Shown piece by piece: positions 545 to 52,696 of a DNA stretch of 64,000 nucleotides. Made by a program: the position numbers and the translations under genes. The stretch lies in NCBI GenBank assembly GCA_045593905.1, contig JAZNXL010000024.1, forward strand, positions 14,028 through 78,027. Direction: 5' to 3'. Source of the stretch: Eubacteriales bacterium (GTDB lineage Bacteria > Bacillota > Clostridia > Oscillospirales > QAKW01). The notes below the pieces were generated by a model, which searched no databases, was not told the origin of the DNA, and saw only the letters and a program-made list of their open reading frames with translations. Position 1 is the first letter of the stretch. Each line of letters begins with the position of its first letter.

Positions 545-3025
545 ATGGCAGACATTAAACATAGTAGTGAAATAGATTTCGAGGGCCAAAAGGTCATTGA
601 AATAGACGTTGAAAACGAGGTGCGCAACGCGTTTATTGACTATGCAATGAGCGTTATTACCGCACGTGCGCTTCCTGACGTACGCGACGGCTTAAAGCCT
701 GTTCACAGACGTATTCTTTATACAATGCACAGGGCAAACCTAACCCCCGATAAGCCGTATAGAAAATCGGCAACTACCGTCGGTGATGTGCTCGGTCACT
801 TCCACCCCCACGGTGACGCATCGGTTTATGATGCAATGGTTCGTCTTGCGCAAACCTTCTCATTACGCTATCCGCTTGTTGACGGTCAGGGTAACTTTGG
901 TTCAATCGACGGCGACGGCCCTGCTGCTTACCGTTATACCGAAGCAAGAATGCAAAAAATTGCACTCGAAATGCTAACTGACATTAAAAAAGATACCGTT
1001 GACTTTATGCCCAACTTCGACGATAAAGACGAAGAGCCTACGGTTTTACCCGCACGTTTTCCAAATCTTCTTGTTAACGGCTCATCAGGTATTGCGGTTG
1101 GTATGGCTACCGAAATTCCGCCTCACAATCTTTCAGAGGTAATCGACGGCACAATCGCGCTTATGGAAAACCCCGATATTGATATTGAGGGACTTATGGA
1201 ATATATCCAAGGCCCCGACTACCCCACAGGCGGTATCATTATGGGCAGAACAGGTATTCGTAACGCTTACAAAACAGGCCGCGGTAAAATTTACGTTCGC
1301 GCTAAAGCCGAGATTGAAGAACAAAAAGACGGTAGATTCAAAATTGTCGTAACCGAAATTCCTTATATGGTAAGAAAATCGGCACTTATCGAAAAAATTG
1401 CCGACGAGGTTAAGGGTGAACGCATTGTTGGTATTTCTGATATCCGCGACGAGTCAGATAAAGACGGTCTCAGGTTTGTAATTGAGCTTAAAAAAGAAGC
1501 AAATGCACAGGTTGTTTTAAACCAGCTTTACAAATACACCGAGATGCAGGCAACCTGCTCGGCTATAATGATTGCGCTTGTTAATAATGTACCAAAGGTG
1601 CTTAACCTTAAAGAAATGTTAAGCGAGTACGTTAAGCATCAGCGCAGCGTAATTACCCGCCGTACACAGTTTGATATTAATAAAGCAAAAGCAAGAGCGC
1701 ATATTCTCGAAGGGCTCATTAAGGCTATCGACTATATTGACGAGGTTATTGAAATTATTAAAAAATCAAAGTCAATTGCCGATGCAAAGGTTGCGCTTTG
1801 TGAAAGATTTGGTCTTGACGACCTTCAGGCACAGGCTATTGTTGATATGAAACTTGGTCAGCTTGCAGGCCTTGAACGCGACAAGATTGAAAACGAGTAC
1901 AAAGAACTTACCGAAAAAATTGCCGACCTTGAAGATATTCTTGCAAACGCATGGCGTGTTGACGAGATTATCAAGACCGACTTACTTGAAATTAAACGTA
2001 AATACGGCGATGCAAGACGCACCGAGATTGGTGTTGGTGAAATCGGTATTGAAGACGAAGACTTAATTCCTGTTGAAGACTGCGTATTCACTCTTACCGA
2101 CGCAGGCTACGTAAAACGTATTCAAACATCAGAATACCGTGCTCAGCATAGAGGCGGTGTTGGTGTTAAGGGTGTTAAAACAAAAGAAGACGACACCGTT
2201 CGCCAAATGTTTGTTGCATCAACCCACGATTATATATTGTTCTTTACATCACTTGGCAGAGTTTATAAGGCAAAAGGCTACGAAATCCCCGAGTGCTCAC
2301 GTACTGCAAAGGGAACAAGCGCTGTTAATATCATTCCGCTTATCTCGGGCGAAAAGGTTTCATCAATGATTAGAGTAAGCGAGTTTAACGATGATTACTT
2401 GTTAATGGTTACAAGAAACGGTACCGTTAAAAAGACATCAATGACCGAGTACTCACATATTCGTAAAACAGGTGTTATTGCAATAGTACTCGATGACGAG
2501 GATACACTCGACACAGTACTTAAAACAACAGGTGACGATAACCTTATTATCGCATCGCACTTTGGTAAGGCTATCAAGTTCTCTGAGGCAGATGTTCGAC
2601 CCATGGGCAGAGTTACCCGCGGTGTTCGCGGCATTAAGCTTGTGGAAGGCGACTACGTTGTTGGCGCTGCAATCGAGCAACCCGATTCGGCACTTCTTAC
2701 AATTACTGAAAACGGCTACGGCAAACGCACCGATACAAGCGAGTATCGTGTTCAGGCAAGAGGCGGTAAAGGTGTTGGTAACTATAACATTACCGATAAA
2801 ACAGGTAACGTTGCGGCAGTTGCCGTTACAACCGGCGAAGAAGATGTGTTACTTGTAACATCGGCAGGTCAGCTTATGCGTACCGCTACAAGCGAAATCT
2901 CAATGTTCTCAAGAACAACCAAAGGCGTTCGCGTTGTAAGACTTCCCGACGGCATTAAGGTTATTGATATGGCTCTTTCACAAAAAGAAGACGAAGAAGA
3001 AATAACCGAAACAACTGAAGAATAA
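545..3025 (+). CDS. gyrA: DNA gyrase subunit A
   Basis: 826 aa. Contains [26 protein letters not shown], the HPHGD motif, repeated C-terminal beta-pinwheel blades and an acidic tail. Confidence 0.98.
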
Positions 3026-3027
3026 AT

Positions 3028-3055
3028 AAAAAAGCACTCTTACGAGTGCTTTTTT
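3028..3055 (+). terminator. Intrinsic terminator after gyrA (left copy of a duplicated hairpin)
   Basis: A-run, stem GCACTC, loop TTAC, stem GAGTGC, then T6. Almost identical to 3982-4008. Confidence 0.8.
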
Positions 3056-3057
3056 AT

Positions 3058-3297
3058 TTAAAAATCGTGCCTTGTTCCACAAGAAATACCGTTTTGCTCA
3101 AATAAACAAACAATGCATTCTATTTTTTCATAACAGTCAGTATCGTTTAAACTATCATTTAATAATATATTTTTTATTTCACATAATAATTTGTAACATT
3201 TTAATTCAAGCAACTGATTTATATTACAATCATTAAATTTAATCTCGATTGTTCCTTGATTTAAAGCATTAATCAACAGCTCTTTATATAGTTCCAT
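3058..3297 (-). CDS. Hypothetical 79-aa protein (helical, Cys-containing), in an AT-rich islet
   Basis: ORF with a strong RBS (GAGGAGGAAATT before the ATG). Divergent from an XRE gene. No family recognised. Confidence 0.55.
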   Translation of the reverse strand: MELYKELLINALNQGTIEIKFNDCNINQLLELKCYKLLCEIKNILLNDSLNDTDCYEKIECIVCLFEQNGISCGTRHDF

Positions 3298-3313
3298 AAT
3301 TTCCTCCTCAAAC

Positions 3314-3390
3314 TATGGGGGTTATATCCCCTTAATAAAAAAGATTATAACCCCCATAATAATTATTGTCAACAATAAGGGGGATATAAT
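3314..3390. promoter_or_regulatory. Divergent promoter/operator region with nested inverted repeats
   Basis: TATGGGGGTTATA (3314-3326) pairs with TATAACCCCCATA (3346-3358). TTATATCCCCTTA (3322-3334) pairs with TAAGGGGGATATAA (3376-3389). This gives four GGGG(G)-W-TATA half-sites in about 80 bp. Confidence 0.5.
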
Positions 3391-3391
3391 A

Positions 3392-3595
3392 ATGATTGTA
3401 TTTAATAAATTGTGGCAAATGATGGAACAAAAAGGCATTAGCACATATTATTTAAGAGAAAAGTGCGGCATTGACAGTAAAACTGTAAGGCGCCTTAGAA
3501 ATAACGAAAACGTCGAAACAAAAACACTTGATAAAATATGTAACGTTCTTGATTGTGGTTTAAACGACATAGCTGAATTTATAAAAGAAAAGTAA
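3392..3595 (+). CDS. XRE (Cro/CI-type) helix-turn-helix transcriptional regulator, 67 aa
   Basis: The pattern KGISTYYLREKCGIDSKTVRRLRNNENVETKTLDKICNVLDC is typical of HTH_XRE proteins. Confidence 0.8.
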   Translation: MIVFNKLWQMMEQKGISTYYLREKCGIDSKTVRRLRNNENVETKTLDKICNVLDCGLNDIAEFIKEK

Positions 3596-3609
3596 AATTA
3601 TAAATTATA

Positions 3610-3640
3610 AGATAACCTTTATATAAGGTTATCTTTTTTA
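3610..3640 (+). terminator. Intrinsic terminator
   Basis: AGATAACCTT / AAGGTTATCT 10-bp stem followed by a T-run. Confidence 0.7.
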
Positions 3641-3740
3641 TTAGTCGAAGGCTTTATATAGCCTAATAGTATCATATATAGCCTACTTTGTCAATATTAT
3701 AAGTCTATAATTAGTCTATATGGCAAAGAGAGGTTATATA

Positions 3741-3983
3741 ATGGACACATATAAAGTTGTAAAAGAAAGAATTATATGTTTGTGTGAGCAAAAGGGGATA
3801 ACAATTAATCAATTAGCAACCGATTCGGGTGTTGCCCCATCAACTATAAAAAATATTTTATATGGTAAAAGTAAAAATCCTGGAATTGTAACAATAAAAA
3901 TGTTATGTGATGGTTTAGGAATATCATTAACATCATTTTTTAATACAACAGAGTTTGAAAATCTTTTACAAGAAATAAAATAA
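3741..3983 (+). CDS. XRE-family HTH transcriptional regulator, about 80 aa
   Basis: Contains KGITINQLATDSGVAPSTIKNILYGKSKNPGIVTIKMLCDGLGISL. The ATG at 3741 has an AGAGAGG RBS, while the ORF-track start at 3720 has none. Confidence 0.75.
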   Translation: MDTYKVVKERIICLCEQKGITINQLATDSGVAPSTIKNILYGKSKNPGIVTIKMLCDGLGISLTSFFNTTEFENLLQEIK

Positions 3984-4008
3984 AAAAGCACTCTTGCGAG
4001 TGCTTTTT
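3982..4008. terminator. Bidirectional terminator (right copy of the duplicated hairpin) between the XRE gene and the DeoR gene
   Basis: A6, GCACTC, TTGC, GAGTGC, T5. Differs from 3028-3055 only in the loop base and T-run length. Confidence 0.8.
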
Positions 4009-4009
4009 A

Positions 4010-4765
4010 TTATGATAAAATTTCACAGCCGGATTGTAAAATAAGCTCTTTAAGCTCGGTTGGTATTTCACTGTCGGTTATTAAATAATCAAATTCTGAA
4101 AAATCGGCAATTTTGCATAAACAGGTTTTGTTAAGCTTAGAACTGTCACAAAGCAGTAAACGTTTTTTTGAATTTTTAAGCATACATCTTTTAACCTCGG
4201 CTTGATATGGCGAGCCTTCGGTTGCACCGTCTGATGAAATACCGCCGCACGAAATAATACAAAGGTCTGCGCGGTAGTTTTCTAAAAACCTGATTGTTTC
4301 GTGACCTATAACAGCATCTGAAGATTCGGTTGCTTCGCCGCCGCACAAAAGTACTTGCATACTATTATTTAGTATTGCTTTTATGCAATTTCTTATACCG
4401 TTTGTAATAACTGTTACGCCTTGTACATTATGTAATAAAGATATAACCTGTCCGGCACTTGAGCTTGAGTCGATAAACAGCGTTGTGTCAGTGCCAATAA
4501 AGTCGAGTGCAAGCTCGGCGATAAGACGTTTTTGGTGTATATTTTGTTTTTCGCGGATTGCGGCAGGGTTTTCGGTGGCGTTACCGCTTATAAGATATGC
4601 ACCACCGTGCGAGCGACCAATAGCGCCCGTGTGCTCAAGCTCTCTAAGGTCACGCCTGACTGTTGCCTCCGATACAAACAGGGCAGCTGCAAGTTCGCCG
4701 ACTGTTGCGCTTTTTTTAGTCTTTAATATATTTGTAATTTGTTCCTGACGTTCATTCTTAAACAT
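4010..4765 (-). CDS. DeoR-family transcriptional regulator
   Basis: N-terminal HTH (VGELAAALFVSEATVRRDLRELE) plus a DeoR C-terminal sugar-phosphate sensor domain. Divergent from rhaA. Confidence 0.9.
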   Translation of the reverse strand: MFKNERQEQITNILKTKKSATVGELAAALFVSEATVRRDLRELEHTGAIGRSHGGAYLISGNATENPAAIREKQNIHQKRLIAELALDFIGTDTTLFIDSSSSAGQVISLLHNVQGVTVITNGIRNCIKAILNNSMQVLLCGGEATESSDAVIGHETIRFLENYRADLCIISCGGISSDGATEGSPYQAEVKRCMLKNSKKRLLLCDSSKLNKTCLCKIADFSEFDYLITDSEIPTELKELILQSGCEILS

Positions 4766-28552: not shown

Positions 28553-28553
28553 A

Positions 28554-29979: not shown

Positions 29980-30001
29980 TTTTAAAAAAGGAGGTGGGCG
30001 C

Positions 30002-30805: not shown

Positions 30806-30826
30806 TTCTTTTGAATCAGCCTTTTT
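30796..30826. terminator. Bidirectional terminator
   Basis: GGCTGATTC TTTT GAATCAGCC followed by T5. Confidence 0.85.
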
Positions 30827-30827
30827 G

Positions 30828-34725: not shown

Positions 34726-34919
34726 AAAAAGGCATAGGCTGTTTCACATAAGGAGCAATAGCCTTAAAAAGCAAGATTTTGGCACAAAACTGCGTTAAAA
34801 ATGCTCGTAATACACAAAGGTATACTAACGCTTTTGTGCCTTGTTTTGCACACAAACTATTGCTTTATAAGGTGCCGAAGGCAGTTTTTATGTAGCTATT
34901 TTTCTATTAGACAAACAAC

Positions 34920-34957
34920 AAAAATCTCGCAATGCTGACGCATTACGAGATTTTTTT
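34920..34957. terminator. Bidirectional terminator
   Basis: ATCTCG-AATGC TGAC GCATT-CGAGAT followed by T7, with an A-run upstream. Confidence 0.8.
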
Positions 34958-35033
34958 ATGCAGTATAATTGGAAAAGAGCTGTTAAAAACCTATTCATCC
35001 TTATGAGAAGCAGCCTTTTAGAGCCTTTTTATT

Positions 35034-35822: not shown

Positions 35823-35934
35823 GTCTTATTCCTCCTGTGTATACTAAAGTTATTTTATCACAGTATATCTGTTTTTTGCAATAAAAAAGAAATTGAGGTG
35901 CATTTAACACAATGCACCTCAAATTCTTTATTAA

Positions 35935-37474: not shown

Positions 37475-38251
37475 TTATTTTTTTCTAAAACTTGTGGGCG
37501 GCATACCGTATTGCTTTAAAAACGCGCGGTTAAAGGTGCGAATTGTACCAAAACCGACCTTTGATGCAATATCGGTTACCGAGTCGGTTGTGTTTTTTAA
37601 AAGCTTAACGGCATCTGAAAGCCTTAACGAGTTTACATAGTCGTTAAAGCTGATAGAAAGCCGACTGCTGAATATATGCGATACCGAGCTTCGACTGATG
37701 TTAAGCGCACTCGCTACGTCGTCAACCGCAAGAGGTTCTTTATAATTTTTTAGGCAGTAATCAAGTATTTGTAAAACAACATCGCTCGACATCTGCTTTT
37801 TTTGAAGCTTTAAGTGTTTTAAAAGCTTTACAAAAAATGTTGTGAGGTATGCATCAATCACAACGCTGTAGCCGTCACGCTCATACTCTTTAAGCGCCGT
37901 TAAAAGCAGGTTTAAAAGGTTGTCGTCATCGGTGTTTTTAAAATCAACCGCCGCACAGGTAGAATCGTTTTGCAAAAATATATCGCCAAGCGTTAAAAGC
38001 CGTGACGGCTTTATAATCAAAAATATGTACTCGCCCTCGCAAAAATCGACGTATTGGTGAATCTGATAGGGAAACGCAATAAACACCGATTTTTCTTTAA
38101 GCGCATACCGCTTGCCATTGCAGATGGCAGTTCCGCTGCCCTTTGTCACGTAACAAAGCTCAATATCGTCGTGTATGTGCGCAATATAATTGGCGTCGTG
38201 ACGCTTTTTAAAGGTTACTTGTGTTCTTGTTTCTGTAAAGATGTTGTGCAT
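37475..38251 (-). CDS. AraC-family regulator (cupin plus HTH)
   Basis: C-terminal AraC HTH. Divergent from the GH3 pair. Confidence 0.88.
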   Translation of the reverse strand: MHNIFTETRTQVTFKKRHDANYIAHIHDDIELCYVTKGSGTAICNGKRYALKEKSVFIAFPYQIHQYVDFCEGEYIFLIIKPSRLLTLGDIFLQNDSTCAAVDFKNTDDDNLLNLLLTALKEYERDGYSVVIDAYLTTFFVKLLKHLKLQKKQMSSDVVLQILDYCLKNYKEPLAVDDVASALNISRSSVSHIFSSRLSISFNDYVNSLRLSDAVKLLKNTTDSVTDIASKVGFGTIRTFNRAFLKQYGMPPTSFRKK

Positions 38252-38340: not shown

Positions 38341-40680
38341 ATGAACATAACAAGACCAAGAGTTAAAGTAAAGGCTCAAAAATGGGCAAGATACAAGCAC
38401 AGTTTAATATCAGCGCTCGGTCCTGACGGCAAGCGTATGACAGGCTGTGACGAACATATCGCGCTTTCGCAAAAAGCGGCAAGCGAGGGCATGGTACTTC
38501 TCGAAAACAACGGTGTTTTACCGCTTAAAAAAGGCACAAAGGTTGCGCTTTTTGGTATGGGTACGCTCGACTATACAAAGGGCGGCGGCGGTAGCGGTGC
38601 CGTTTACTGCAAATATACATATAACATATACGAGGGCTTTAAGTTAAAAGAGCCGTATGTATCGGTTTACGAGCCTGTAACAAAATATTACTACGACTAT
38701 GCAATGGCGCATCTTGACGAATATGCAGGCGAAGGAGATTGTGAACCGCTCATACCAAATATACCGCTCACGACCGATTTGCTCAACGATGCGGCAAGAA
38801 TATGTGACGTTGCTATTATAACAATCAGCCGCACCTCGGCCGAGGGTGCCGACCGTCTTTCAGAAAAAGGTGACTTTTACTTAACTGATGATGAGCAGCA
38901 AACTGTTGATGCTGTTACATCGGTGTTTGATAAATGCGTTGTTATTTTAAACGTTGGCGGTATGGTTGATGTTTCGTGGATAAAGAGTAACGATAAAATC
39001 GGCGCGGCACTTCTTGCATGGCAAGCAGGCCAGAACGGTGCGCTCGCGGCAGCTGACATTATTTGCGGTGACGTTAACCCATCGGGTAAACTTGCCGATA
39101 CCTTTGCAAAAACTTTTGCAGACTATCCATCGGCAGATACCTTTAACGAAAGCGAAGACTATGTTGAATACTTTGAAGATATCTATGTAGGCTACCGCTA
39201 TTTTGAAACTATCCCCGGCGCTAAAGACAAGGTAAACTATCCCTTTGGCTACGGTCTTTCATACACAACCTTTGATATTTCAAAACCGGTTGCAAAACAA
39301 AACGGCGACAGCATTGAGCTTTTTGTAACTGTTACAAACACAGGCGATGTGGCAGGTAAAGAGGTTGTTCAAGGCTACTACTCAGCGCCTCAGGGTGTTC
39401 TCGGTAAGAGCGCAATTGAACTTGGTGCGTTCCAAAAAACAAAGCTTTTAGCACCCGGCGAGAGTGAAGATATTACACTTTCGTTCAAAATTGCTGATAT
39501 GGCAAGCTATGACGACCTTGGCAAGCTTCAAAAATCAGCATATCTTTTAGAAAAAGGTGACTATAAATTCTTCGTTGGTAACAGCTGCCGTAACACACAG
39601 CAGGCTGACTACGTTTACACAGTAACCGAGGAGTTTGTTGTAACAGAGCAGTTATCACAAAAATGCGCTCCCGTTCATATTAAAAAGCGTATGCTCTCTG
39701 ACGGTAGCTTCGAAGCTCTCCCCGAGGGTAGCTTTAAGCACTACAGCCCCGCGCCGTACGTAAACCCTGCAAAACCCGTTGAAAGCGCAACTCCTTTCAC
39801 ACTCGAGGACGTATATAACGGTAAGCTCACACTTGACGAGTTTTTAACACAGTTTACCGATGACGAGCTCATAACTCTTTTGGCAGGAACAGGTGTGCGT
39901 TGGGGTGTTTCAACAACAATGGGTATAGGCGGAATTGACCGACTTGGTGTGCCTGTGCTTATGACAAACGACGGACCTGCGGGCCTTAGGGTGCGCTCTA
40001 CAATAGGCATTGCAACAACTGCTTGGCCGTGCGCAACACTTCTTGCTTGCACCTGGAACACCGATATTATGTACGAAATAGGTAAAGCAGGCGCCATTGA
40101 AGCAAAAGAACAAGGCAACGCTATTTGGCTCACCCCCGGACTTAATATCCATAGAAACCCGCTTTGCGGCCGTAACTTTGAATACTTTAGCGAAGACCCT
40201 GTTGTTGCGGGTAAGTTAGCCGCTGCAAAGGTAAACGGTATTCAAAGCCAAAAGATTGGCGCATCAATCAAGCATTTTTGCTGTAATAATAAAGAGATTA
40301 ACCGTCAGTTCTCTGATAGCCGACTTTCAGAACGTGCACTCAGAGAAATTTACTTAAAGTGCTTTGAAATTGCAGTTAAAGAGTCACAGCCGTTTACTCT
40401 TATGTGTGCATACAACATTGTAAACGGACAAAGATGCTGCGAAAGCTATGAGCTTAACCAGCTTATCCTTCGCGATGAATGGGGCTATGAGGGTATGATA
40501 GAGACTGACTGGTGGACACCCTGTGACCAATCAAGCATTGTACTTGCAGGTTGCGATGTGCGTATGCCAATAGGTGAGCCCGAGGTGGTTAAGTTTGCGT
40601 TAAAAAACAAAAAGCTCACTCGCGGACACCTTGAAAAATGCGCAAAACGAGTACTCGAAATGATGCTTAAGATTGACTGA
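38341..40680 (+). CDS. Glycoside hydrolase family 3 beta-glucosidase-like enzyme, circularly permuted domain order (copy 1)
   Basis: The N-terminal part matches the GH3 alpha/beta-sandwich and FnIII-like domains (LLENNGVLPL, SAEGADR, YPFGYGLSYTTF). The C-terminal part matches the GH3 barrel (NIHRNPLCGRNFEYFSEDP, KHFCCNNKE, ETDWW). Confidence 0.92.
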   Translation: MNITRPRVKVKAQKWARYKHSLISALGPDGKRMTGCDEHIALSQKAASEGMVLLENNGVLPLKKGTKVALFGMGTLDYTKGGGGSGAVYCKYTYNIYEGFKLKEPYVSVYEPVTKYYYDYAMAHLDEYAGEGDCEPLIPNIPLTTDLLNDAARICDVAIITISRTSAEGADRLSEKGDFYLTDDEQQTVDAVTSVFDKCVVILNVGGMVDVSWIKSNDKIGAALLAWQAGQNGALAAADIICGDVNPSGKLADTFAKTFADYPSADTFNESEDYVEYFEDIYVGYRYFETIPGAKDKVNYPFGYGLSYTTFDISKPVAKQNGDSIELFVTVTNTGDVAGKEVVQGYYSAPQGVLGKSAIELGAFQKTKLLAPGESEDITLSFKIADMASYDDLGKLQKSAYLLEKGDYKFFVGNSCRNTQQADYVYTVTEEFVVTEQLSQKCAPVHIKKRMLSDGSFEALPEGSFKHYSPAPYVNPAKPVESATPFTLEDVYNGKLTLDEFLTQFTDDELITLLAGTGVRWGVSTTMGIGGIDRLGVPVLMTNDGPAGLRVRSTIGIATTAWPCATLLACTWNTDIMYEIGKAGAIEAKEQGNAIWLTPGLNIHRNPLCGRNFEYFSEDPVVAGKLAAAKVNGIQSQKIGASIKHFCCNNKEINRQFSDSRLSERALREIYLKCFEIAVKESQPFTLMCAYNIVNGQRCCESYELNQLILRDEWGYEGMIETDWWTPCDQSSIVLAGCDVRMPIGEPEVVKFALKNKKLTRGHLEKCAKRVLEMMLKID

Positions 40681-40717
40681 TTAATTTAAATATATATAAA
40701 GCTAAATGGAGGCAATT

Positions 40718-43057
40718 ATGAACATAACAAGACCAAGAGTAAAAGTAAAAGCTCAAAAATGGGCAAAATACAAATATAACTTAATATCGGCGCTCGGTCC
40801 TGACGGTAAGCGTATGACAAGCTGTGATGAACATATTGCGCTTTCGCAAAAGGCGGCAAGCGAGGGTATGGTACTGCTTGAAAATAACGGTATTTTACCG
40901 CTTAAAAAAGGCACAAAGGTTGCGCTTTTTGGTATGGGTACACTCGACTATACCAAAGGCGGCGGCGGTAGTGGTGCCGTTTACTGTAAATATACATACA
41001 ATTTTTACGAGGGCTTTAAGAAAAAAGAGCCTTACGTCAGCGTTTATGAGCCTGTTACAAAATACTACTATGACTACGCAATGGAGCATCTTGACGAGTA
41101 CGCAGGCGAGCGTAACAACGACCACCTTGTTCCTTGTATTGAACTCCCCGAAAAGCTTTTAAACGATGCCGCAAAAGAGTGCGACGTTGCGGTTATTACA
41201 ATAAGCCGTACCTCACACGAGGGTGCTGACCGTTTTTCAGAAAAAGGCGACTTTTACTTAACTGACGACGAGCAGCAAACTGTTGATGCCGTCACATCGG
41301 TATTCGATAAATGCGTTGTTATTTTAAACGTTGGCGGTATGGTTGACGTTTCGTGGATAAAGAATAACGATAAAATCGGTGCGGCACTTCTTGCATGGCA
41401 AGCAGGCCAAAACGGTGCGCTCGCGGCAGCTGATATTATTTGCGGTGACGTTAACCCGTCAGGTAAGCTTACCGATACATTTGCAAAAACCTTTGACGAT
41501 TATCCGTCAGCTGATACCTTTAACAAAAGCGAAGACTATGTTGAATACTTTGAAGATATTTACGTAGGCTACCGCTATTTTGAAACTATCCCAGGCGCCA
41601 AAGACAAGGTAAACTACCCCTTTGGCTACGGTCTTTCATACACAACCTTTGATATTTCAAAACCTGTGGCAAAACTCGACGGTGACACAATAGAAATTTC
41701 AACAACCGTTAAAAACACAGGCGATATGGCGGGCAAAGAGGTTGTTCAAGCATATTACTCGGCACCGCAGGGTGTACTTGGCAAAAGCGCTATTGAACTT
41801 GGTGCATTCCAAAAAACAAAGCTTTTAGCCCCCGGCGAGAGCGAGGATATTACAGTTTCGTTTAAAGTGGCCGATATGTCAAGCTACGATGACCTCGGCA
41901 AGCTTAAAAAATCAGCATACCTTTTAGAAAAAGGCGATTACAGGTTCTTTGTAGGTAACAACTGCCGTAACTTAATACAGGCTGACTACGTTTACACAGT
42001 GGCTGATGAGTTTATTGTAACCAAGCAGCTTAGCGAACTTTGTCCGCCAATCAACCTTAAAAAGCGTATGCTTGCTGACGGTAGCTTTGAAGCTTTGCCC
42101 GAAGGTAAATTTAAACACTACAAACCCGAACCGTACGTAAACACCGCAAAGCCTGTTGAAAGCGCAACTCCTTTCACACTCGAAGACGTATACAATCAAA
42201 AGCTCACCCTCGACGAGTTTTTAACACAGTTTACCGACGACGAGCTTGTTACAATAGTTACAGGCTGTGGCTCAAACAGAAGCGTTTCAACAACGGCAGG
42301 TATGGGCGGTATCGTAAGACTTGATGTACCAATTATGCCTACAGCCGACGGCCCTGCAGGCGTGCGTATTAGACCTACAGTTGGTATTGAAACAACCGCT
42401 TGGCCGTGTGCAACACTGCTTGCTTGTACCTGGAACACCGACATTATGTATGAAATAGGTAAAGCGGGCGCAATCGAGGCAAAAGAGCAAGGACTTGCAA
42501 TATGGCTTACACCCGCGCTCAATATCCACAGAAACCCGCTTTGCGGACGTAACTTTGAATACTTTAGTGAAGACCCTGTTGTTGCGGGTAAGTTTGCTGC
42601 TGCAAAGGTAAACGGTATTCAAAGCCAAAAAATCGGCGCATCAATCAAACATTTTTGCTGCAACAACAAAGAGGTTAACCGTAAGTTCTCTGATAGCCGT
42701 GTTTCAGAACGCGCTTTACGTGAAATTTACCTCAAGTGCTTTGAAATTACAGTTAAAGAATCTCAGCCCTATACACTAATGAATTCGTACAACATTGTAA
42801 ACGGACAAAGATGCTGCGAAAGCTATGAGCTTAACCAGCTTATCCTTCGCGATGAATGGGGCTATGAGGGTATGATAGAGACTGACTGGTGGACACCCTG
42901 TGACCAATCAAACAATGTTCTTGCAGGTTGCGATGTTCGTATGCCTGTAGGCGACCCCGAGGTGTTAAAGGGCGCACTCCATAACAAAAAGATTACTCGC
43001 GGACACCTTGAAAAATGTGCAAAACGCATACTCGAAATGATGTTAAAGATTGACTAA
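40718..43057 (+). CDS. GH3 beta-glucosidase-like enzyme, permuted (copy 2, tandem paralog)
   Basis: Collinear with copy 1, with long identical nucleotide stretches. ATG at 40718 follows GGAGG. Confidence 0.92.
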   Translation: MNITRPRVKVKAQKWAKYKYNLISALGPDGKRMTSCDEHIALSQKAASEGMVLLENNGILPLKKGTKVALFGMGTLDYTKGGGGSGAVYCKYTYNFYEGFKKKEPYVSVYEPVTKYYYDYAMEHLDEYAGERNNDHLVPCIELPEKLLNDAAKECDVAVITISRTSHEGADRFSEKGDFYLTDDEQQTVDAVTSVFDKCVVILNVGGMVDVSWIKNNDKIGAALLAWQAGQNGALAAADIICGDVNPSGKLTDTFAKTFDDYPSADTFNKSEDYVEYFEDIYVGYRYFETIPGAKDKVNYPFGYGLSYTTFDISKPVAKLDGDTIEISTTVKNTGDMAGKEVVQAYYSAPQGVLGKSAIELGAFQKTKLLAPGESEDITVSFKVADMSSYDDLGKLKKSAYLLEKGDYRFFVGNNCRNLIQADYVYTVADEFIVTKQLSELCPPINLKKRMLADGSFEALPEGKFKHYKPEPYVNTAKPVESATPFTLEDVYNQKLTLDEFLTQFTDDELVTIVTGCGSNRSVSTTAGMGGIVRLDVPIMPTADGPAGVRIRPTVGIETTAWPCATLLACTWNTDIMYEIGKAGAIEAKEQGLAIWLTPALNIHRNPLCGRNFEYFSEDPVVAGKFAAAKVNGIQSQKIGASIKHFCCNNKEVNRKFSDSRVSERALREIYLKCFEITVKESQPYTLMNSYNIVNGQRCCESYELNQLILRDEWGYEGMIETDWWTPCDQSNNVLAGCDVRMPVGDPEVLKGALHNKKITRGHLEKCAKRILEMMLKID

Positions 43058-43091
43058 ATAAAAAATCTCGTAGTTTTTACTACGAGATTTT
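43055..43091 (+). repeat. 37-nt direct repeat, left copy (includes the GH3 stop codon and an intrinsic terminator)
   Basis: TAAATAAAAAATCTCGTAGTTTTTACTACGAGATTTT is identical to 48154-48190. Confidence 0.9.
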
Positions 43092-43175
43092 ATTTTGTGA
43101 AAATTTTTGCCGTTCTAAATAATAACTTCGCTTACGAGAGGTACTTATCGGCACGGGCAACTCGTCTCCTACATA

Positions 43176-43461
43176 TAAATTTAATATATTATTGCAATTT
43201 TTTAAAAAACATGATAAACTGATAATTGCCAAACTAACTGAATACTTGTGTGAAATTGGGTGTATTTTCTTTTTATAAGGATAAATACGCTCTATTTTCG
43301 TAACCTATAATTATTACGAATTTGATAAAAATGCAAATTTCAACGAATGTATGTTGCGAGCGTTTTTACGCCCTTTTCACACTCGGTTAGTTTGGCGACT
43401 ATCGGAGTTTGCGTTTTTTGTGCGGTTGCTTCGGTAGCCGCACTTTTTAATTTTTAGGAGG
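43176..43461 (+). promoter_or_regulatory. Conserved leader copy 1: promoter, about 230-nt structured 5'UTR, terminator, RBS
   Basis: TTGCAA (43192-97), 17 nt, TAAACT (43215-20). Long-range helix 43228-43255 with 43375-43396. Terminator 43420-43448. AGGAGG at 43456. Near-identical to 45549-45834. Confidence 0.65.
43420..43456 (+). terminator. Leader terminator/attenuator hairpin (UUCG loop) directly upstream of the RBS
   Basis: GTGCGGTTGC TTCG GTAGCCGCAC followed by T5AAT5. Confidence 0.7.
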
Positions 43462-43466
43462 AAAAA

Positions 43467-45473
43467 ATGAAAAAACGAATTTTAAGCTTAGTACTTGTTT
43501 TAGTTATGTCGGTATCTTTTGCAGCTACTATGTGTGTTACAGCTAGTGCCTATACATATAATGGAAGCGCTGCCGTTGATTATGCCAATCAGCATTGGAA
43601 TGATGGTGTAGGCAAGTGTGCAACCTTCGTATCTAATTGTTTGGCAGCAGGTGGTTGCAACGCGTGGTCTTCTTTAGTTGTAAATTTAAGAGAACAGTTA
43701 ATTAGTGGCGGTTGGGGAACCGAATATCTTCTTACAGAGAATGGACAATCAATATATGAATATCAAAACTCTGGAAAGCTTTCTGCGGGCGACCCCATAT
43801 TTTTTTATTGTAAAAAATGTAAAACTTTCACACATGTGGTTATTTGCACTGGATTCAATAGCGAGGGAAAAGCAACTGCATCTGGACATAATGCCGCATG
43901 GAATAATGTTACTTACATAGCGGGATTTTGGGACGCTTCAGAGCATAAAGGTGACGATATTTTAGTATATTCATTTCATATTGACGGAGACGATATAAAC
44001 TATCACAACCTTAGTGAAGGTGTATATTTCATATTGAATATGGGTCAAAAAAGATATCTGGCAGTTGACAACGGAATAGATGAGAATGCGCAGAACGTAT
44101 CAGCTCATATATTTTGGAACAGCGACGCTTATAAAATGTCAATTACAAAGGTAGGGGATGCCTATAAAATGCGACCTCTTTGTTCTGCTTCAAGACTAAT
44201 AAATGTGTATGCAGATACAGTTGTGAGTGGAAAAAATGTAAATATTTACAACGAAACTAATCATGCATCGCAGTGGTGGAGATATGAGCTTGTCGGCGAT
44301 TCGTTTATTATAAGAAACGCCCAAAATCCAAGTTGTGTACTTACCGTTGATGGCGAAAATGTAATAGTATCAACATATACAGGCTCCGACTACCAAAAGT
44401 GGCAAATATACGCTCCTCAAGATACAATTGCTTATAATGCAAATGGTGGCACAGGGGCGCCGCCTTCGCAAGTCAAATATCACAATATTGACCTTGTGTT
44501 GACTTCTCAAACTCCTGTTCGCGAGGGCTATACCTTTTTGGGTTGGTCACATAGTCCTACGGCAACACAACCAAGTGCATACCCCAGTGGTGTTTATCAT
44601 AGTTTGACGGGAGCAACTTTGTATGCAGTATGGTCTAAAAATACCGTGCACACTTGTGAATTTTCAAATTATATTTATAACAATGATGCAACTTGTATAA
44701 ACAATGGTACAGAAACAGCTACTTGCAGTTGTGGTAAAACAAATACAAAAGAAAAAGCTAACTCGGCAACTGGTAATCATTATTGGGGAGAATATATATC
44801 AAACAAGAATGCAACCGAAACAGCTGATGGTACAAAAACACGTACTTGCGCGGTTTGTGGTCATAGCGAAACTGCAGTAGACGTTGGTTCAAAACTTCCT
44901 GCAATCAAGGACACAACGGCAATATTTACCGACGTAGCTCAAGATTGGTATACAACCTTTGTTAACTACGCATACACCTACGGCATATTCAAGGGCAACG
45001 AAGACGGCACGTTTAAACCGCTTTCAAATATCACACGTGCTGAATTTGTGCAGGTGCTTGCAAACATTACAGGCGTTGATACCTCAAACAAAGCGGTTGT
45101 AACAAAGTTTAGCGATGTGAGAGCAGGCGATTGGTTTGCACCTGCTGTTAAGTGGGCAAACGATAACGGAATTGTTGCAGGTAAATACGCAAATCAGTTT
45201 GCTCCCGAAGAAAACATAACACGTGAGCAAATGTGCGTTATGATTGTAAACTATGCAAAATACAGGGGAATTACTCTTGCAGTAGTTGAGGCAAAAGAGG
45301 CGTTTGCTGACGATTGGGCAATAAGCTCATGGGCAAAAGATGCAGTTTATGCTTGTCAGATGGCTGACATTGTAAACGGCAAAGGCGAGGGAAGATTTGA
45401 CCCACAAGGCACAGGTCTTAGAGCCGAAGCATCGGTTATATTTACAAAATTCCATCAAAATTATTTAAAATAG
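43467..45473 (+). CDS. Secreted multidomain S-layer-homology protein: papain-like putative amidase, ricin-type lectin, Listeria-Bacteroides repeat, Cys-rich module, 3x SLH
   Basis: Signal peptide ending TASA. Cys/His pair GKCATFVSNCL / FTHVVICTG. QxW-like motifs SQWW and YQKW. NANGGTGAPP...YTFLGWS. Three SLH repeats at the C-terminus (FTDVAQDWY.., FSDVRAGDWF.., FADDWAISSW..). Confidence 0.85.
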   Translation: MKKRILSLVLVLVMSVSFAATMCVTASAYTYNGSAAVDYANQHWNDGVGKCATFVSNCLAAGGCNAWSSLVVNLREQLISGGWGTEYLLTENGQSIYEYQNSGKLSAGDPIFFYCKKCKTFTHVVICTGFNSEGKATASGHNAAWNNVTYIAGFWDASEHKGDDILVYSFHIDGDDINYHNLSEGVYFILNMGQKRYLAVDNGIDENAQNVSAHIFWNSDAYKMSITKVGDAYKMRPLCSASRLINVYADTVVSGKNVNIYNETNHASQWWRYELVGDSFIIRNAQNPSCVLTVDGENVIVSTYTGSDYQKWQIYAPQDTIAYNANGGTGAPPSQVKYHNIDLVLTSQTPVREGYTFLGWSHSPTATQPSAYPSGVYHSLTGATLYAVWSKNTVHTCEFSNYIYNNDATCINNGTETATCSCGKTNTKEKANSATGNHYWGEYISNKNATETADGTKTRTCAVCGHSETAVDVGSKLPAIKDTTAIFTDVAQDWYTTFVNYAYTYGIFKGNEDGTFKPLSNITRAEFVQVLANITGVDTSNKAVVTKFSDVRAGDWFAPAVKWANDNGIVAGKYANQFAPEENITREQMCVMIVNYAKYRGITLAVVEAKEAFADDWAISSWAKDAVYACQMADIVNGKGEGRFDPQGTGLRAEASVIFTKFHQNYLK

Positions 45474-45475
45474 AA

Positions 45476-45505
45476 TAAAAAAACACCCGTAAAGGTGTTT
45501 TTTTA
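45476..45505 (+). terminator. Intrinsic terminator after the SLH gene
   Basis: A-run, ACACC CGTAAA GGTGT, T7. Confidence 0.7.
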
Positions 45506-45548
45506 TGCTTCGCTTTGCCTACCTTGCCTATAGAGGCAAGGGTACGGT

Positions 45549-45834
45549 TAAATTTAAATTATCATTGCAATTTTTAATAAAACGTGGTAAACTGATATTT
45601 GCCAAACTAACTGAATACTTGTGTGAAATTGGGTGTATTTTCTTTTTATAAGGATAAATACGCTCTGTTTTCGCAACCTATAATTATTACGAATTTGATA
45701 AAAATGCAAATTCCAGCGATTGTAGGTTGCGAGCGTTTTTACGCCCCATTTCACACTCGGTTAGTTTGGCGACTATCGGAGTTTGCGTTTTTTGTGCGGT
45801 TACTTCGGTAGCCGCACTTTTTAATTTTGGGAGG
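45549..45834 (+). promoter_or_regulatory. Conserved leader copy 2
   Basis: TTGCAA (45565-70), 17 nt, TAAACT (45588-93, with TG extension). Helix 45601-45628 with 45749-45770. Terminator 45794-45822. GGGAGG at 45829. Confidence 0.65.
45794..45828 (+). terminator. Leader terminator/attenuator hairpin, copy 2
   Basis: GTGCGGTTAC TTCG GTAGCCGCAC followed by T5AAT4. The G-to-A change turns a G.U pair into an A-U pair. Confidence 0.7.
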
Positions 45835-45842
45835 ATGATTAA

Positions 45843-47870
45843 ATGAAAAAATGTATTGCATGTGGCAACAAGCTAAAAAAAAGCAGTGAATTTTGTAGCA
45901 AGTGCGGTGCACAGGTTTTACAAGAGGATACGTTACAAAACGATACTTCAAACTTGACGGAACAAACAGAACAAACAGTAACTGTTCTGAAAAAAGGTGG
46001 CTTTATAAATTTTTTAAAAAAGCATATTTTCATTATTTTAGGTGCTGTTGTTGCAATTGCCGCAATAACAACTACTTTGGTTTTGCTTATTCCTAAACTA
46101 ACTTCAGTAGTAACTATGGGTAAACCCAAAAGAACAAATCATGTGTTGTATTTTAAAGACAAAGAAATGTTCTTTTATAATCTTAAAGAAGAACAAGCTC
46201 CAATACAGGTTACATCCGATTTTGATAGAGATAATTTAATTGAAAAAGACCAATATGGTTGGTGGATTTCAAGCGATGAAACATACTTATGTAAAAATGG
46301 CACCTTGCTTTTTTATCCGGGACAAATATCGTCTAACGGAGAAGATGAAGTTAAAAATGTAAGTATATATTATCGCAATGTTAAAGAGCAGGAATCGGAG
46401 CCTGTAAAAATAGATTCTGACATACGCGAGGGTTCCGTAAACGCTTCTGGTACAATTGTTATTTACGTAAAGGGCAATGAAAGAAATTTATTTCAGTATT
46501 TTGTAGAAACTGAAACACGCGAGAAAATTGCAAGCGGGGTTGATTGGTTTGAATATACCGAGGACCACGAAAAAATATTATATCAAAATTCAGAGGGCGA
46601 TATTTATTTATTAAACTCCGAAAATAAAAAAGAAAAGATTGTAAGTGAAGCGTCCAGCGTAGAGTATGTAAATTTTGATTTTTCTATTATATACTATATT
46701 AAAGACAATACACTTTATAAACAAACAGTCGGCGGCGAACGCGAGAAAATTGCTGAAGGAGTGAGCTATGTTATTAATGTATACGATTCGGGCGAGATAT
46801 ATTATAGAAAAACCGAAGAAATAACCTTAACCTATATGGATTTGGTTGAAGATGATTTAAAGGATAGCGATGCTTCAATTACTATGCCTGAAAAACCAAC
46901 TGCACCAAAGGCGTATGATTATGACACGTGGGATGAATATTATGATGCATGGGATATATATGACTTTGCGTATGAAAATTATAAAACCCAACTTGAAAAA
47001 TACGAAGATAAATTATATCGTGACAGTCTTCGTGAAATTCTTTATGAGTCAACATTAACCTACGATAACGACTCGTTATATTTTTATAATGGCTCAGAAG
47101 AAAAGAAAATTACAGACAACTATGCATACTATGACGGATGGAATTATTCAGAAAAGTCGCCTATTATTACATATAATGTATGTGACAGGTCTAATTTGAA
47201 GACAGTAAAGTTTAGCGAATTAATAGTTAAGTATGAAAATGACGAGATTGAGAATATAGATGATTTTTCATATTTTGATACACTTCATGAAGGTGATTAT
47301 ACATATATAGCAAGTAAGGATAATGTAACTAAAGTTGAAGTTGAAAAAACTGCTAAAGTTTTAATAAATGAATCAGGCACCGGCGCATATTACATAGAGC
47401 GTCCCGTCGAGGAAAAGAATTACGGAGAATTATATCATGTAGACATTATAGATGGTGCCATAGGTAAACCTAAGTTATATGACAGTGACGTTTGCTATTA
47501 TAATATATATTTTATAGATGACAACAGAATTGCATATTATAAAAATGCCAAAGAAAATGATGGCGACCTTTATATTAACAAAGAAGAAATTGACTTTGAT
47601 GTTTGGAGCTTTCAATATTACGAACATTGTGATACACTTGTTTACTATACTGACTATAATACCGAAAAAGAGTACGGTGTATTAAAAATATATAAAGACG
47701 GCGAGTCAACAAAAATTTCAGATGACGTGTATGACCATTATATCACAGAAGACGGCACAGTTTTATTCTTGTATGATTACAGTACGGAGTATTACAGAGG
47801 TGAGCTTGATATGTGGAAAGACGGCGAGAAAACAAAAATAGACGATGATGTAATGGCTATTATAGATTAG
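45843..47870 (+). CDS. Zinc-ribbon / single-TM protein with a large repeat-rich Tyr/Asp/Glu-rich ectodomain
   Basis: CIACG..(x10)..CSKCG zinc ribbon, TM segment HIFIILGAVVAIAAITTTLVLLI, then about 580 aa with a recurring Y-Y/F-x-K/D-G/N beta-strand-like periodicity. Confidence 0.8.
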   Translation: MKKCIACGNKLKKSSEFCSKCGAQVLQEDTLQNDTSNLTEQTEQTVTVLKKGGFINFLKKHIFIILGAVVAIAAITTTLVLLIPKLTSVVTMGKPKRTNHVLYFKDKEMFFYNLKEEQAPIQVTSDFDRDNLIEKDQYGWWISSDETYLCKNGTLLFYPGQISSNGEDEVKNVSIYYRNVKEQESEPVKIDSDIREGSVNASGTIVIYVKGNERNLFQYFVETETREKIASGVDWFEYTEDHEKILYQNSEGDIYLLNSENKKEKIVSEASSVEYVNFDFSIIYYIKDNTLYKQTVGGEREKIAEGVSYVINVYDSGEIYYRKTEEITLTYMDLVEDDLKDSDASITMPEKPTAPKAYDYDTWDEYYDAWDIYDFAYENYKTQLEKYEDKLYRDSLREILYESTLTYDNDSLYFYNGSEEKKITDNYAYYDGWNYSEKSPIITYNVCDRSNLKTVKFSELIVKYENDEIENIDDFSYFDTLHEGDYTYIASKDNVTKVEVEKTAKVLINESGTGAYYIERPVEEKNYGELYHVDIIDGAIGKPKLYDSDVCYYNIYFIDDNRIAYYKNAKENDGDLYINKEEIDFDVWSFQYYEHCDTLVYYTDYNTEKEYGVLKIYKDGESTKISDDVYDHYITEDGTVLFLYDYSTEYYRGELDMWKDGEKTKIDDDVMAIID

Positions 47871-47979
47871 CTTTACAACTGATACGCAAATTTGGTATAC
47901 TTAATTTAAGTATACCCACAACATTATAGCACAAAACAATCTTAAAATATACTTAAAATAAGATTTTTTTGGAGATGTT

Positions 47980-48156
47980 ATGAGAAATAAAGCTAATAAG
48001 CATTTGGGAATAGAGGTTGACCCCGAGCTGCATAAAAAGTTGCACTTTATTGCAAAGTACGAGGGTCGTTCTGCAAACGGACAAATTCTTTATCTTATAA
48101 GACAGTGTATTCGTGAGTTTGAAGACAAGCACGGAAAAATAGAAGATGAGCAATAA
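47980..48156 (+). CDS. Ribbon-helix-helix (Arc/CopG-like) DNA-binding protein, 58 aa (below the ORF-track cutoff)
   Basis: My translation: MRNKANKHLGIEVDPELHKKLHFIAKYEGRSANGQILYLIRQCIREFEDKHGKIEDEQ. GGAG RBS at 47971. A perfect 23-bp palindrome lies upstream at 47894-47916. Confidence 0.7.
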   Translation: MRNKANKHLGIEVDPELHKKLHFIAKYEGRSANGQILYLIRQCIREFEDKHGKIEDEQ

Positions 48157-48190
48157 ATAAAAAATCTCGTAGTTTTTACTACGAGATTTT
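48154..48190. repeat. 37-nt direct repeat, right copy (RHH stop codon plus bidirectional terminator)
   Basis: Identical to 43055-43091. The FTR-like gene stop codon lies 2 nt further on the minus strand. Confidence 0.9.
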
Positions 48191-48191
48191 T

Positions 48192-48392
48192 TTAATCTTT
48201 TGATTTATAGTAGAGCATACAGTGGCAAAAGCCTTCAAAGTTAGGGTCGGCAATTTGCTCTTTAAACTCTTTGCAAATACATTTGTATTCTTCGGTTTTT
48301 GGCAGTCGGCAGGGACAGTATCCGCCTTTTGCCTTAAGACCGTCTTTTATTCTTTTTACAACTTCTTTATCGGGGTTAAGTTTTACTGCCAT
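48192..48392 (-). CDS. Ferredoxin:thioredoxin reductase catalytic-subunit-like mini-protein
   Basis: 66 aa carrying a CPC...CIC...CHC cysteine pattern. Confidence 0.75.
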   Translation of the reverse strand: MAVKLNPDKEVVKRIKDGLKAKGGYCPCRLPKTEEYKCICKEFKEQIADPNFEGFCHCMLYYKSKD

Positions 48393-52126: not shown

Positions 52127-52696
52127 TTATTTTTGCGACATTTCGTCAAGCGTCATACTATAGCAGGGTAATACGTTATCAATAAAATACTTAACGCTTT
52201 TAAATTCGCTTTTTTCAAGTGCACTTCGTATTGTTTTTTCTGCACTTGAAAAGTCGTTGTTGCCAACCGCTTTTTCGGTTATGCATTTTATAAGCGCCGA
52301 AAGCTTGTCTGCGGCTTTTATAATCGGGTGCTCAACCATATACCCGCGGTAAATATCTTTAAGCTCATCAGCAAGCCCTGTGATTAATGTTTCTTGTGCC
52401 TTTTTTTCAATTGTATGATACTCACTGAGCAGTGCGGGGTTGTTGTGCTTTACGGGTGTTGGCAAATCGCCTGTTATAATTTCGGCGCAATCGTGAAACA
52501 GTGCCGCAACCGTTATTTTTTCGGCGTCAAACTCGCCGCCAAACATCTCGTTTTCGATGTTGGCAAGAGCGTTTGCAATAATCGCCGTTTCAAAACTGTG
52601 CTCTGACAGGTTTTCAAACCGTGAGTTGTGCATAAGCCCCCAACGGTTTATATATTTCATACGCGATATAAACGCGAAGAACGAATTTTTGTTCAT
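52127..52696 (-). CDS. HD-domain 5'-deoxynucleotidase (YfbR-like)
   Basis: Contains RWGLMHNSRFENLSEHS and ALFHDCAEIITGDLPTPVK. Confidence 0.85.
   Translation of the reverse strand: MNKNSFFAFISRMKYINRWGLMHNSRFENLSEHSFETAIIANALANIENEMFGGEFDAEKITVAALFHDCAEIITGDLPTPVKHNNPALLSEYHTIEKKAQETLITGLADELKDIYRGYMVEHPIIKAADKLSALIKCITEKAVGNNDFSSAEKTIRSALEKSEFKSVKYFIDNVLPCYSMTLDEMSQK

Follow-up and report, generated by a model that had tools for sequence, protein, structure and literature searches.

Insertion of a three-gene cassette at a predicted bidirectional terminator, with duplication of the terminator, in an uncultured gut Clostridia bacterium

How does a block of foreign genes come to lie between two exact copies of a terminator, when the block itself carries no recognizable mobility gene? 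The question is raised by a stretch of 64,000 nt (contig JAZNXL010000024.1, positions 14,028 to 78,027; hereafter the window) from an uncultured gut Clostridia bacterium, in which a 5.1-kb cassette of three genes separates two convergent core genes, one for a beta-glucosidase-like enzyme of family GH3 and the other for a small FeThRed_B-like (FTR-like) protein. An original prediction, made from the letters of the window, proposed that the cassette had been inserted at what was once a single terminator between these genes, and that the terminator hairpin had been duplicated in the process. We find that both parts of this proposal are correct, and consider here how such an insertion may have come about.

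The repeat and its empty site

The repeat that bounds the cassette, TAAATAAAAAATCTCGTAGTTTTTACTACGAGATTTT, occurs twice (Table 1), and its copies agree at 37/37 positions, exactly as had been predicted. The edges of identity are sharp: the sequences on the left read ..GATTGAC and ..GAGCAA, and those on the right ATTTTGTG and TTTAATC. A third copy was not found in the window even when up to three mismatches were allowed, and 100 dinucleotide shuffles gave no match to the 37-mer. Both copies are predicted to fold, on either strand, into a 9-bp stem that A/U pairs extend to 13–15 bp (-17 to -18 kcal/mol, z -5.5 to -7.7), and in a terminator scan both were terminator-like on the plus and the minus strand. 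With its GC-containing stem-loop, a U-tract on both strands and a position between convergent 3' ends, the 37-mer has the features of a predicted bidirectional intrinsic terminator. The stop codon of the FTR-like gene (TTA, 48192-48194) lies within the T-tract immediately after the right copy, which would also serve that gene, as had been suggested. Each copy opens with a TAA that is the stop codon of the gene to its left, GH3 copy 2 (43055-43057) in one case and the 58-residue gene in the other. This observation, too, was correct, but the coincidence is weaker than it appears, because the repeat begins TAAATAA, so that two of the three incoming reading frames would stop within 6 nt, and because nearly all genes of this genome end in TAA followed by an A-tract.

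What the locus looks like without the cassette can be read directly from eight related contigs, reached by way of the Rce1-like protein encoded in the right flank. Three of these (L001, L002 and L004) are conspecific, encoding an identical Rce1-like protein and showing 98.6–99.4% nucleotide identity to the right flank of the window; L017 is about 90% identical at the nucleotide level, and L005–L008 about 85%. In L002, the 3' end of the GH3 gene (..AAGATTGAC) is followed by a 37-mer that matches the repeat at every base and then by the TTA of the FTR-like stop codon, the 37-mer being made up of the GH3 stop codon and the whole of the 34-nt spacer up to the FTR-like stop. L001 and L004 likewise have a single hairpin and no cassette, their tracts being one A and one T longer (A7/T7), and L017 and L005–L008 have an AraC gene, a single GH3 gene, one hairpin and the FTR-like gene, again with no cassette. 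The ancestral arrangement is GH3, one bidirectional terminator and the convergent FTR-like gene, and, because the single-hairpin empty site is seen in all eight contigs, the cassette is an insertion that duplicated the hairpin. A search of relatives for just such an empty site had been recommended along with the prediction.

Gain rather than loss

Eight empty contigs, at three levels of divergence (99%, 90% and 85%), stand against one filled genome. The hairpin loop is GAAA in L017 and L005–L008, on the same stem, whereas both window copies have the species-specific loop TTTT. Within the cassette, G+C content runs at 0.30–0.39, against 0.42–0.46 outside it (0.357 for the whole cassette and 0.331 for its right half; the flanks have 0.445 and 0.417), and the right flank differs from that of the empty contigs L002 and L004 at an even density, some 2–5 mismatches per 500 nt. 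Since the two copies are identical at 37/37 positions and have the species-specific loop, since the cargo has a foreign G+C content and since the flank mismatches are uniform, the sequence supports a recent, strain-specific gain rather than ancestral presence.

We also considered import of the cassette together with diverged flanks, and rejected it, as divergence is not raised beside the cassette. The sole relative found among GTDB species genomes (L009; 72% identity, for one protein) has lost synteny at the cassette site.

The cassette genes and their origin

The domain content of the cassette is as first described, that is, an SLH hydrolase with lectin-like domains, a zinc-ribbon protein and an RHH-type protein, although the match of the last of these is weak (Table 1). 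Pfam domains of recombinases, transposases or replication proteins were not found in the cargo, nor were integrase or transposase domains found in the scanned window open reading frames (ORFs) of at least 100 residues, six of which have no Pfam match; within that scope, the claim that the window has no integrase, transposase or recombinase holds. Rfam and tRNA scans of the locus gave no match, and no terminal inverted repeats of the cargo were found (best end-to-end score 8.5, against a shuffle mean of 8.0). Beyond the FTR-like gene, the minus strand encodes Rce1-like, DJ-1/PfpI and LPG-synthase-like proteins. On the other side, the two GH3 genes form a tandem pair (38341-40680 and 40706-43057) whose proteins are 87% identical, and the single GH3 of L017 and L005–L008 is nearer to window copy 2 than to copy 1.

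Where might the cargo have come from? The hairpin pattern AAATCTCGTAGTNNNNACTACGAGATTT had no match in 185,579 species genomes, JGI metagenomes and viral contigs. Nor did any of the indexed contigs, which do not include the source genome, encode an exact match to the FTR-like, RHH, zinc-ribbon, DeoR or SpoVT protein. Only trivial short matches were obtained when the cargo was compared with phages and plasmids by BLAST, and scans of viral contigs with both large cargo proteins revealed no relative. The zinc-ribbon protein is matched at 100% solely in the source contig, the next best match having 40% amino acid identity, and its homologues at or below this level belong to clusters of like zinc-ribbon genes, in which neither the leader (discussed in the last section) nor terminator repeats are present. 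The idea of a travelling cassette was therefore rejected, the zinc-ribbon homologues being in unrelated contexts that lack the repeats. Homologues of the RHH protein (about 50% identity) are found in a Ruminococcus phage, a Monoglobus replicon and a small unverified phage contig, contexts that are uninformative for mobility. In a GC-rich contig labelled as phage (L020, MT837744.1), the RHH homologue (3392-3553) is enclosed by a pair of roughly 150-nt inverted repeats (2933-3091 and 3588-3747).

Table 1. Features of the cassette locus and of the second duplicated terminator (window coordinates; a dot marks features without strand)
Feature	Position	Strand	Remarks
GyrA	545-3025		Left core flank of second site
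Second site, left terminator copy	3017..3060	.	Core 3024-3054; 17-bp palindrome including stop codons of both strands
Second-site cargo gene, 79 residues	3058-3297	minus	
Second-site cargo	3061..3970	.	0.9 kb, GC 0.27; missing in L012
Second-site cargo gene, XRE/HTH_26, 67 residues	3392-3595		
Second-site cargo gene, XRE, 87 residues	3720-3983		
Second site, right terminator copy	3971..4012	.	Core 3978-4008
DeoR	4010-4765	minus	Right core flank of second site
AraC regulator	37475-38251	minus	Precedes the tandem GH3 genes
GH3 copy 2, beta-glucosidase-like	40706..43057	+	Left core flank; Pfam Glyco_hydro_3_C, Fn3-like, Glyco_hydro_3; 3' end 97.4% identical to empty-site contig L002
Left repeat copy	43055..43091	.	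Stop codon, A6, 9-bp stem TCTCGTAGT/ACTACGAGA, loop TTTT, T4; predicted bidirectional intrinsic terminator
Inserted cargo	43092..48153	+	5,062 nt, GC 0.357; missing from 8/8 related contigs
Promoter-like site and leader copy 1	43192..43466	+	TTGCAA 43192-43197, 17-nt spacer, TGnTAAACT (43215-43220); predicted terminator hairpin 43420-43443 just before ribosome-binding site
Cargo gene 1, 668-residue SLH-anchored surface protein	43467..45473	+	Putative amidase and lectin-like domains; Pfam SLH x3, Flg_new, RicinB_lectin_2, Amidase_6
Internal cargo terminator	45475..45506	.	Unrelated stem (ACACC); same plan of TAA, A-tract, stem and T-tract
Leader copy 2	45549..45842	+	93–98% identical to copy 1; precedes unrelated gene
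Cargo gene 2, 675-residue protein, N-terminal zinc ribbon	45843..47870	+	Pfam Zn_Ribbon_1
Cargo gene 3, 58-residue Arc/RHH-like protein (weak match)	47980..48156	+	Full length against homologues; stop is the TAA opening the right repeat
Right repeat copy	48154..48190	.	Predicted terminator for RHH gene (+) and FTR-like gene (-)
FeThRed_B-like (FTR-like) gene, 66 residues	48192..48392	minus	Right core flank; flank 99.2% identical to L002

A second duplicated terminator and other gene gains

A similar geometry had been noted at 3027-4008, between the convergent genes for GyrA and DeoR, and the pair of terminators there is real. The two cores are 31 nt long and 97% identical, the copies differing by one substitution in the loop and in homopolymer lengths; as they are not identical, the event at this second site would be somewhat older. 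In a relative at about 90% nucleotide identity (L012), the GyrA–DeoR gap is only 33 nt and holds one terminator, which can be aligned with either window copy along some 43 nt. The stem at the second site (GCACTC) bears no relation to the 37-mer stem, and A/T tracts are all that the repeats of one site have in common with those of the other. Each of the two terminal ORFs of the second-site cargo has its stop in the stop/A-tract on the inner side of a repeat, and we confirm that a small DNA-binding gene abuts the right copy at both sites, in what are two cases only. In a 71% relative (L101, 6760-9846), the GyrA–DeoR interval holds GFO_IDH, PHP and 94-residue genes, terminator repeats not being detected there, so the interval is variable at deeper divergence too. 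Across 953 kb (the window plus fetched loci), the 37-mer is the only exact repeat of at least 20 nt with a terminator-type hairpin between A/T tracts, the one further exact repeat with a hairpin being a GC-rich one of 55 nt in L060 (see the last section). Some 890 kb of other Clostridia contigs contained no duplicated terminator of this A/T-tract type.

Comparison of the relatives with the window by BLAST exposed two further gains at terminators. At site B (27704-30833), a block of EamA, GFO_IDH_MocA and AraC genes lies between convergent genes for a G3P dehydrogenase and DeoR; it is missing in L005, where these two genes converge on a single terminator. In the window, the resident terminator stays on the left of the block and a different, cargo-borne terminator lies on the right, with no long repeat and only T-tract similarity at the joints. 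Site C, between a gene for a 476-residue protein and DUF1667, is empty in L005 (15824-15895) and holds SASA in L006 (12996-13943) and a HAD hydrolase in the window (34726-35934), together with some 300 nt of non-coding DNA in the last case. The L006 joints have no more than AATAAAAAAGG in common, and there, too, the stem came with the cargo.

All four gene gains at terminators keep a terminator at each junction, whether duplicated or cargo-borne, and at three of the sites (the cassette site, site C and GyrA–DeoR) the same core pair brackets nothing or different cargo, with no mobility genes, as in an islet hotspot. Recurrent gain of genes at the terminators of convergent genes is thus supported for this window, as had been suspected. 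The alternative offered alongside, an unrecognized type of mobile cassette, is unsupported, because relatives of the cargo are at most 40% identical and lack the repeats, the hairpin is missing from the collections searched, the stems of the two sites are unrelated and two of the gains have no long repeat.

How might the cassette have been inserted?

It seems rather likely, if far from certain, that the cassette is a one-off illegitimate insertion of foreign DNA at a bidirectional terminator, not mobile in itself and accompanied by a 37-nt target duplication. The terminators of this genome share a plan in which TAA, a short AT step and an A-tract precede the stem-loop, and a T-tract and the reverse stop TTA follow it, so that the whole spacer is palindromic. 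About 19 terminators with differing stems are present in the window. The motif AATAAAAAA occurs 23 times (7.2 expected), mostly at terminators, and the 11-mer TAAATAAAAAA is found at the end of gyrA as well. Of the two cassette junctions, the left falls within the T-tract (GAGATTTT followed by ATTTTGTG) and the right at the natural end of the RHH ORF (GAGCAA followed by TAAATAAAAAA); that the latter is a natural stop/A-tract follows from the RHH protein being full length in comparison with its homologues.

From these junctions we infer the following chemistry, and a role for selection. The cargo would have been bounded by terminators in its donor too. Its left end would have been joined to the T-tract of the resident terminator and its right end to the stop-codon/A-tract across the same hairpin, and, because the two joints would be staggered across the palindrome, the 34-nt spacer and the GH3 stop codon would be copied to both sides. 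The joins may have been guided by the common motifs TAA(AT)AAAAAA, the stem and TTTTTT(AT)TTA, either through illegitimate recombination of the ends-in or gap-repair type, acting on short tracts common to both DNAs, or through nicking of an extruded hairpin or cruciform at its base, the gaps then being filled in and the ends joined. If microhomology was the guide, the donor should carry the cargo between two other terminators, with an upstream tail ..TTTTATTTTGTG and with the RHH stop followed by an A-tract and a different stem. Once established, the left copy would shield the cargo promoter from GH3 read-through, and the right copy would end the RHH and FTR-like transcripts; the survivors of such events would be those insertions that leave a terminator at every junction. 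The variable outcomes, duplicating at two sites and not at two others, fit illegitimate events better than a fixed recombinase.

Several points weigh against illegitimate insertion. Two whole-terminator duplications in 64 kb are more than would be expected of rare random events, and in both of them a small DNA-binding gene abuts the right copy; genes of the excisionase/AlpA type sit likewise beside att sites (PMC12595487). The left edge of the repeat lies 5 nt outside the perfect palindrome, which pure cruciform nicking does not predict. The stem CTCGTA..TACGAG occurs in four hairpins of the window (12167-12187, 34926-34949, 43067-43086 and 48166-48185) against 0.12 expected, hinting at a history of hairpin copying that the illegitimate model leaves unexplained. 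A donor of the cargo was not found in the collections searched.

Alternative explanations

Could the cassette instead be a non-autonomous integrative element, akin to a satellite or to a cis-mobilizable element (CIME)? The 37-mer would then be an att core, recombined by an enzyme encoded elsewhere, the circular form would carry one copy, and the RHH protein would be a leftover directionality factor. A CIME is a decayed integrative element that keeps attL and attR but has lost its integrase (PMC5704250), and the absence of a recombinase from the cassette agrees with that definition. Here too, a block at a gene 3' end is flanked by exact direct repeats, with one copy at the empty site; moreover, a small DNA-binding gene lies beside the right repeat at both sites, as AlpA lies beside attR in tmRNA islands (PMC12595487), and the RHH protein has phage homologues. 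However, attP would have to equal the local species allele at 37/37 positions, including a loop that differs in the 90% relatives, and the repeats are local alleles of a whole intergenic spacer rather than a sequence common to the two sites. As the stems of the two sites are unrelated, this would take either two recombinases or one that reads structure. For these sites, neither a related autonomous element nor an integrase was found, integrase-bearing elements being present in 0/8 of the related contigs, all of them empty, and the hairpin having 0 matches in the genome, metagenome and viral collections. The surface-protein cargo is also unlike a decayed prophage or integrative and conjugative element (ICE), and contains no remnants of a prophage, an ICE or an integrative and mobilizable element. 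An origin of this kind is unlikely.

Comparably unlikely is a RecA-type exchange between the terminator copies, in which a circle with one hairpin is looped out and re-inserts at the single hairpin of a cassette-free strain, so that the repeats become the vehicle of spread within the species. The model for this would be the promoter-early stem-loop (PeSL) regulatory cassettes of T4-type phages (Arbiol et al., 2010, PMC2839356; Comeau et al., 2014, PMC4122927), in which short repeats with a functional terminator stem-loop enclose the blocks of genes by which very close relatives differ, again with no recombinase. The geometry of our cassette is identical to that of the PeSL-bounded indels of close T4-type phages, for which mini-circles have been demonstrated (PMC2839356). 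Conspecific strains are polymorphic for the cassette, the indel being bounded by the motif in this case also, and L002 has as its single copy a sequence identical to the repeat. The circle that such an exchange would yield carries one repeat. PeSLs, on the other hand, are a dispersed family in which a conserved promoter accompanies the terminator at many sites of the phage genome, whereas each repeat here is the resident terminator of one chromosomal site, has no promoter part and is present in two copies in 64 kb. Such an exchange would leave the first duplication unexplained, and among the collections searched the cassette is found in the source genome only. Nor is the repeat long, its 37 nt lying close to the lower limit of efficient RecA exchange. 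Exchange between the 37-nt repeats may well be occurring now.

A more novel possibility is a trans-acting, structure-directed enzyme that inserts foreign gene blocks at terminator palindromes and duplicates the whole palindrome, much as Cas1–Cas2 does with the CRISPR repeat. Two independent sites with different stems show a like outcome, the extent of duplication is close to the palindromic spacer at both, and hairpins sharing the 37-mer stem are enriched in the window. Set against this are the lack of a candidate enzyme in the window, the two other gains at terminators without duplication, and the differences in length and edges (37 nt and about 43 nt, with the 37-nt repeat offset from the palindrome); besides, the cases number only two. 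We consider such an enzyme quite improbable; if real, structure-directed integration would be an undescribed route of gene capture without element-encoded machinery.

It is very unlikely that the cassette is ancestral and was lost from other lineages, precise deletion between the repeats having left the empty sites. Deletions of this kind can be mediated by direct repeats of 37 nt, and a separate microhomology deletion polymorphism lies nearby: a gene for a WecG-type glycosyltransferase, present in L001 (4934-5646) and in L005–L007, is missing from the window (52128-52134), L002 and L003, and the joint has a 7-nt overlap. Several independent deletions would nevertheless be required to account for empty contigs at 99%, 90% and 85% identity; old repeats should have diverged, yet the copies are identical and have a derived, species-specific loop; and the foreign G+C content of the cargo and the origin of two copies would still call for explanation.

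Least probable of all is an assembly artefact, in which a 5.1-kb segment, or a free circle sharing the hairpin, was joined at the 37-mer in a metagenome-assembled genome: the source is one NCBI contig, probably from an uncultured organism, and de Bruijn graphs typically contain loops that hang from a repeat, but a foreign segment would have to end on either side in the species-specific 37-mer, no replication gene is present in the cargo, and the second site has a like geometry with imperfect repeats, which an assembler cannot create.

Relation to known systems

In transposon and casposon insertion and in CRISPR adaptation, as at the cassette site, a resident sequence that is single beforehand is found on both sides afterwards. 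CRISPR adaptation duplicates a palindromic repeat of about 28–37 nt, and known transposon duplications are of 2–15 bp. The duplications described here are not of fixed length (37 nt and about 43 nt) and are far above the transposon range; transposase, casposase, Cas1 and terminal inverted repeats are all lacking; and the insert is 5 kb of ordinary genes. Integrons offer another parallel, in that hairpin-forming sites bound cassettes devoid of a recombinase and the stop codon of an ORF can lie in the site. The inverted repeats of integron attC sites are imperfect, contain extrahelical bases and carry RYYYAAC / GTTRRRY cores, whereas the palindrome here is perfect, without extrahelical bases, and GTTRRRY is absent from both the 37-mer and the second repeat. 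Integron cassettes differ also from this three-gene cargo, which has promoter-like sites of its own; IntI and attI are not seen in the window, and no Phage_integrase-type match was obtained in its scanned ORFs.

Palindrome-associated transposable elements of the IS200/IS605 type (PATE), repetitive extragenic palindromes (REP) and bacterial interspersed mosaic elements (BIME) do not describe the repeat, as the empty site keeps its hairpin, which is orthologous in the 85–90% relatives, and there are two copies in 64 kb. Elements that depend on Xer (IMEX, or dif modules) are equally inapplicable, the repeats being a perfect stem with a 4-nt loop rather than XerC and XerD arms around a 6–8-nt spacer.

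A further likeness is to integrase-free hotspots between conserved genes, of the kind reportedly known from the minimal mobile elements of Neisseria and said to have been treated by Oliveira and colleagues in 2017, in which a given pair of core genes encloses no cargo in some strains and differing cargo in others, mobility genes being absent. Models of those hotspots, which invoke homologous exchange within the flanking genes, do not predict that the spacer is duplicated, and the 37-nt duplication is an additional feature here. We file the cassette as an integrase-free genomic islet at an insertion hotspot, unusual in the 37–43-nt duplication of a whole terminator.

Most integrase-free gains of chromosomal genes are explained by homologous recombination in flanking core genes, and the founding event is rarely visible. 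In the present case, the filled and the untouched site of one species are both available at base resolution, with a second duplicated case and two non-duplicating ones in the same 64 kb. The picture that we propose is one in which the terminators of convergent genes would act as landing pads, their stop-codon/A-tract and T-tract as joints, and preservation of a terminator as the filter for survival. If the pattern should prove to be genome-wide, it would add a mechanistic footnote on the origin of islets in AT-rich Firmicutes; otherwise, these are two ordinary strain-specific insertions, well documented.

A duplicated leader, and other repeats in the window

Within the cassette, a leader of 280 nt occurs twice (43176-43454 and 45549-45828), ahead of two unrelated genes. 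Each copy comprises a promoter-like site, a predicted multi-branched fold of about 190 nt with a closing helix of about 24 bp, and a predicted intrinsic terminator before the ribosome-binding site. The minimum free energies are -87.3 kcal/mol for copy 1 and -101.4 kcal/mol for copy 2 (z -9.6 for both), and two of the differences between the copies strengthen one helix. Rfam has no family that matches the leader at the gathering threshold, nor at E values up to 10, and on its predicted structure the duplicated leader is a candidate for a new cis-regulatory leader. The period of the leader repeat (2373–2374 nt) nearly equals that of the tandem GH3 genes (2377 nt), which is probably a coincidence.

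Some other repeats and hairpins deserve mention. The hairpin at 34926 has AAAAAATCTCGTA and CGAGATTTTT in common with the 37-mer in addition to its stem, though its apex is different. Two terminators at 14885-14922 and 18545-18582 are 84% alike, with a compensatory change in the stem (GGACTC/GAGTCC in one, GGGCTC/GAGCCC in the other), and flank 3.6 kb that encode an unknown 627-residue protein, EamA and a PocR-AraC regulator; to judge from its sequence, this pair may be an older duplication of the same kind. A metagenome scan with SpoVT for the region found relatives of at most 58% identity only. Among unrelated GC-rich Clostridia contigs, L060 has an exact 55-nt direct repeat with a GC-rich hairpin (at 10541 and 15069, 4.5 kb apart), and L025 has two similar terminators 1 kb apart (3031-3056 and 4047-4076). 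Lastly, a 68-nt repeat in the window (22727-22794 and 24038-24105; 94% identity), containing a promoter-like TATAAT, precedes a BNR-repeat gene in one position and a GH2 gene in the other.

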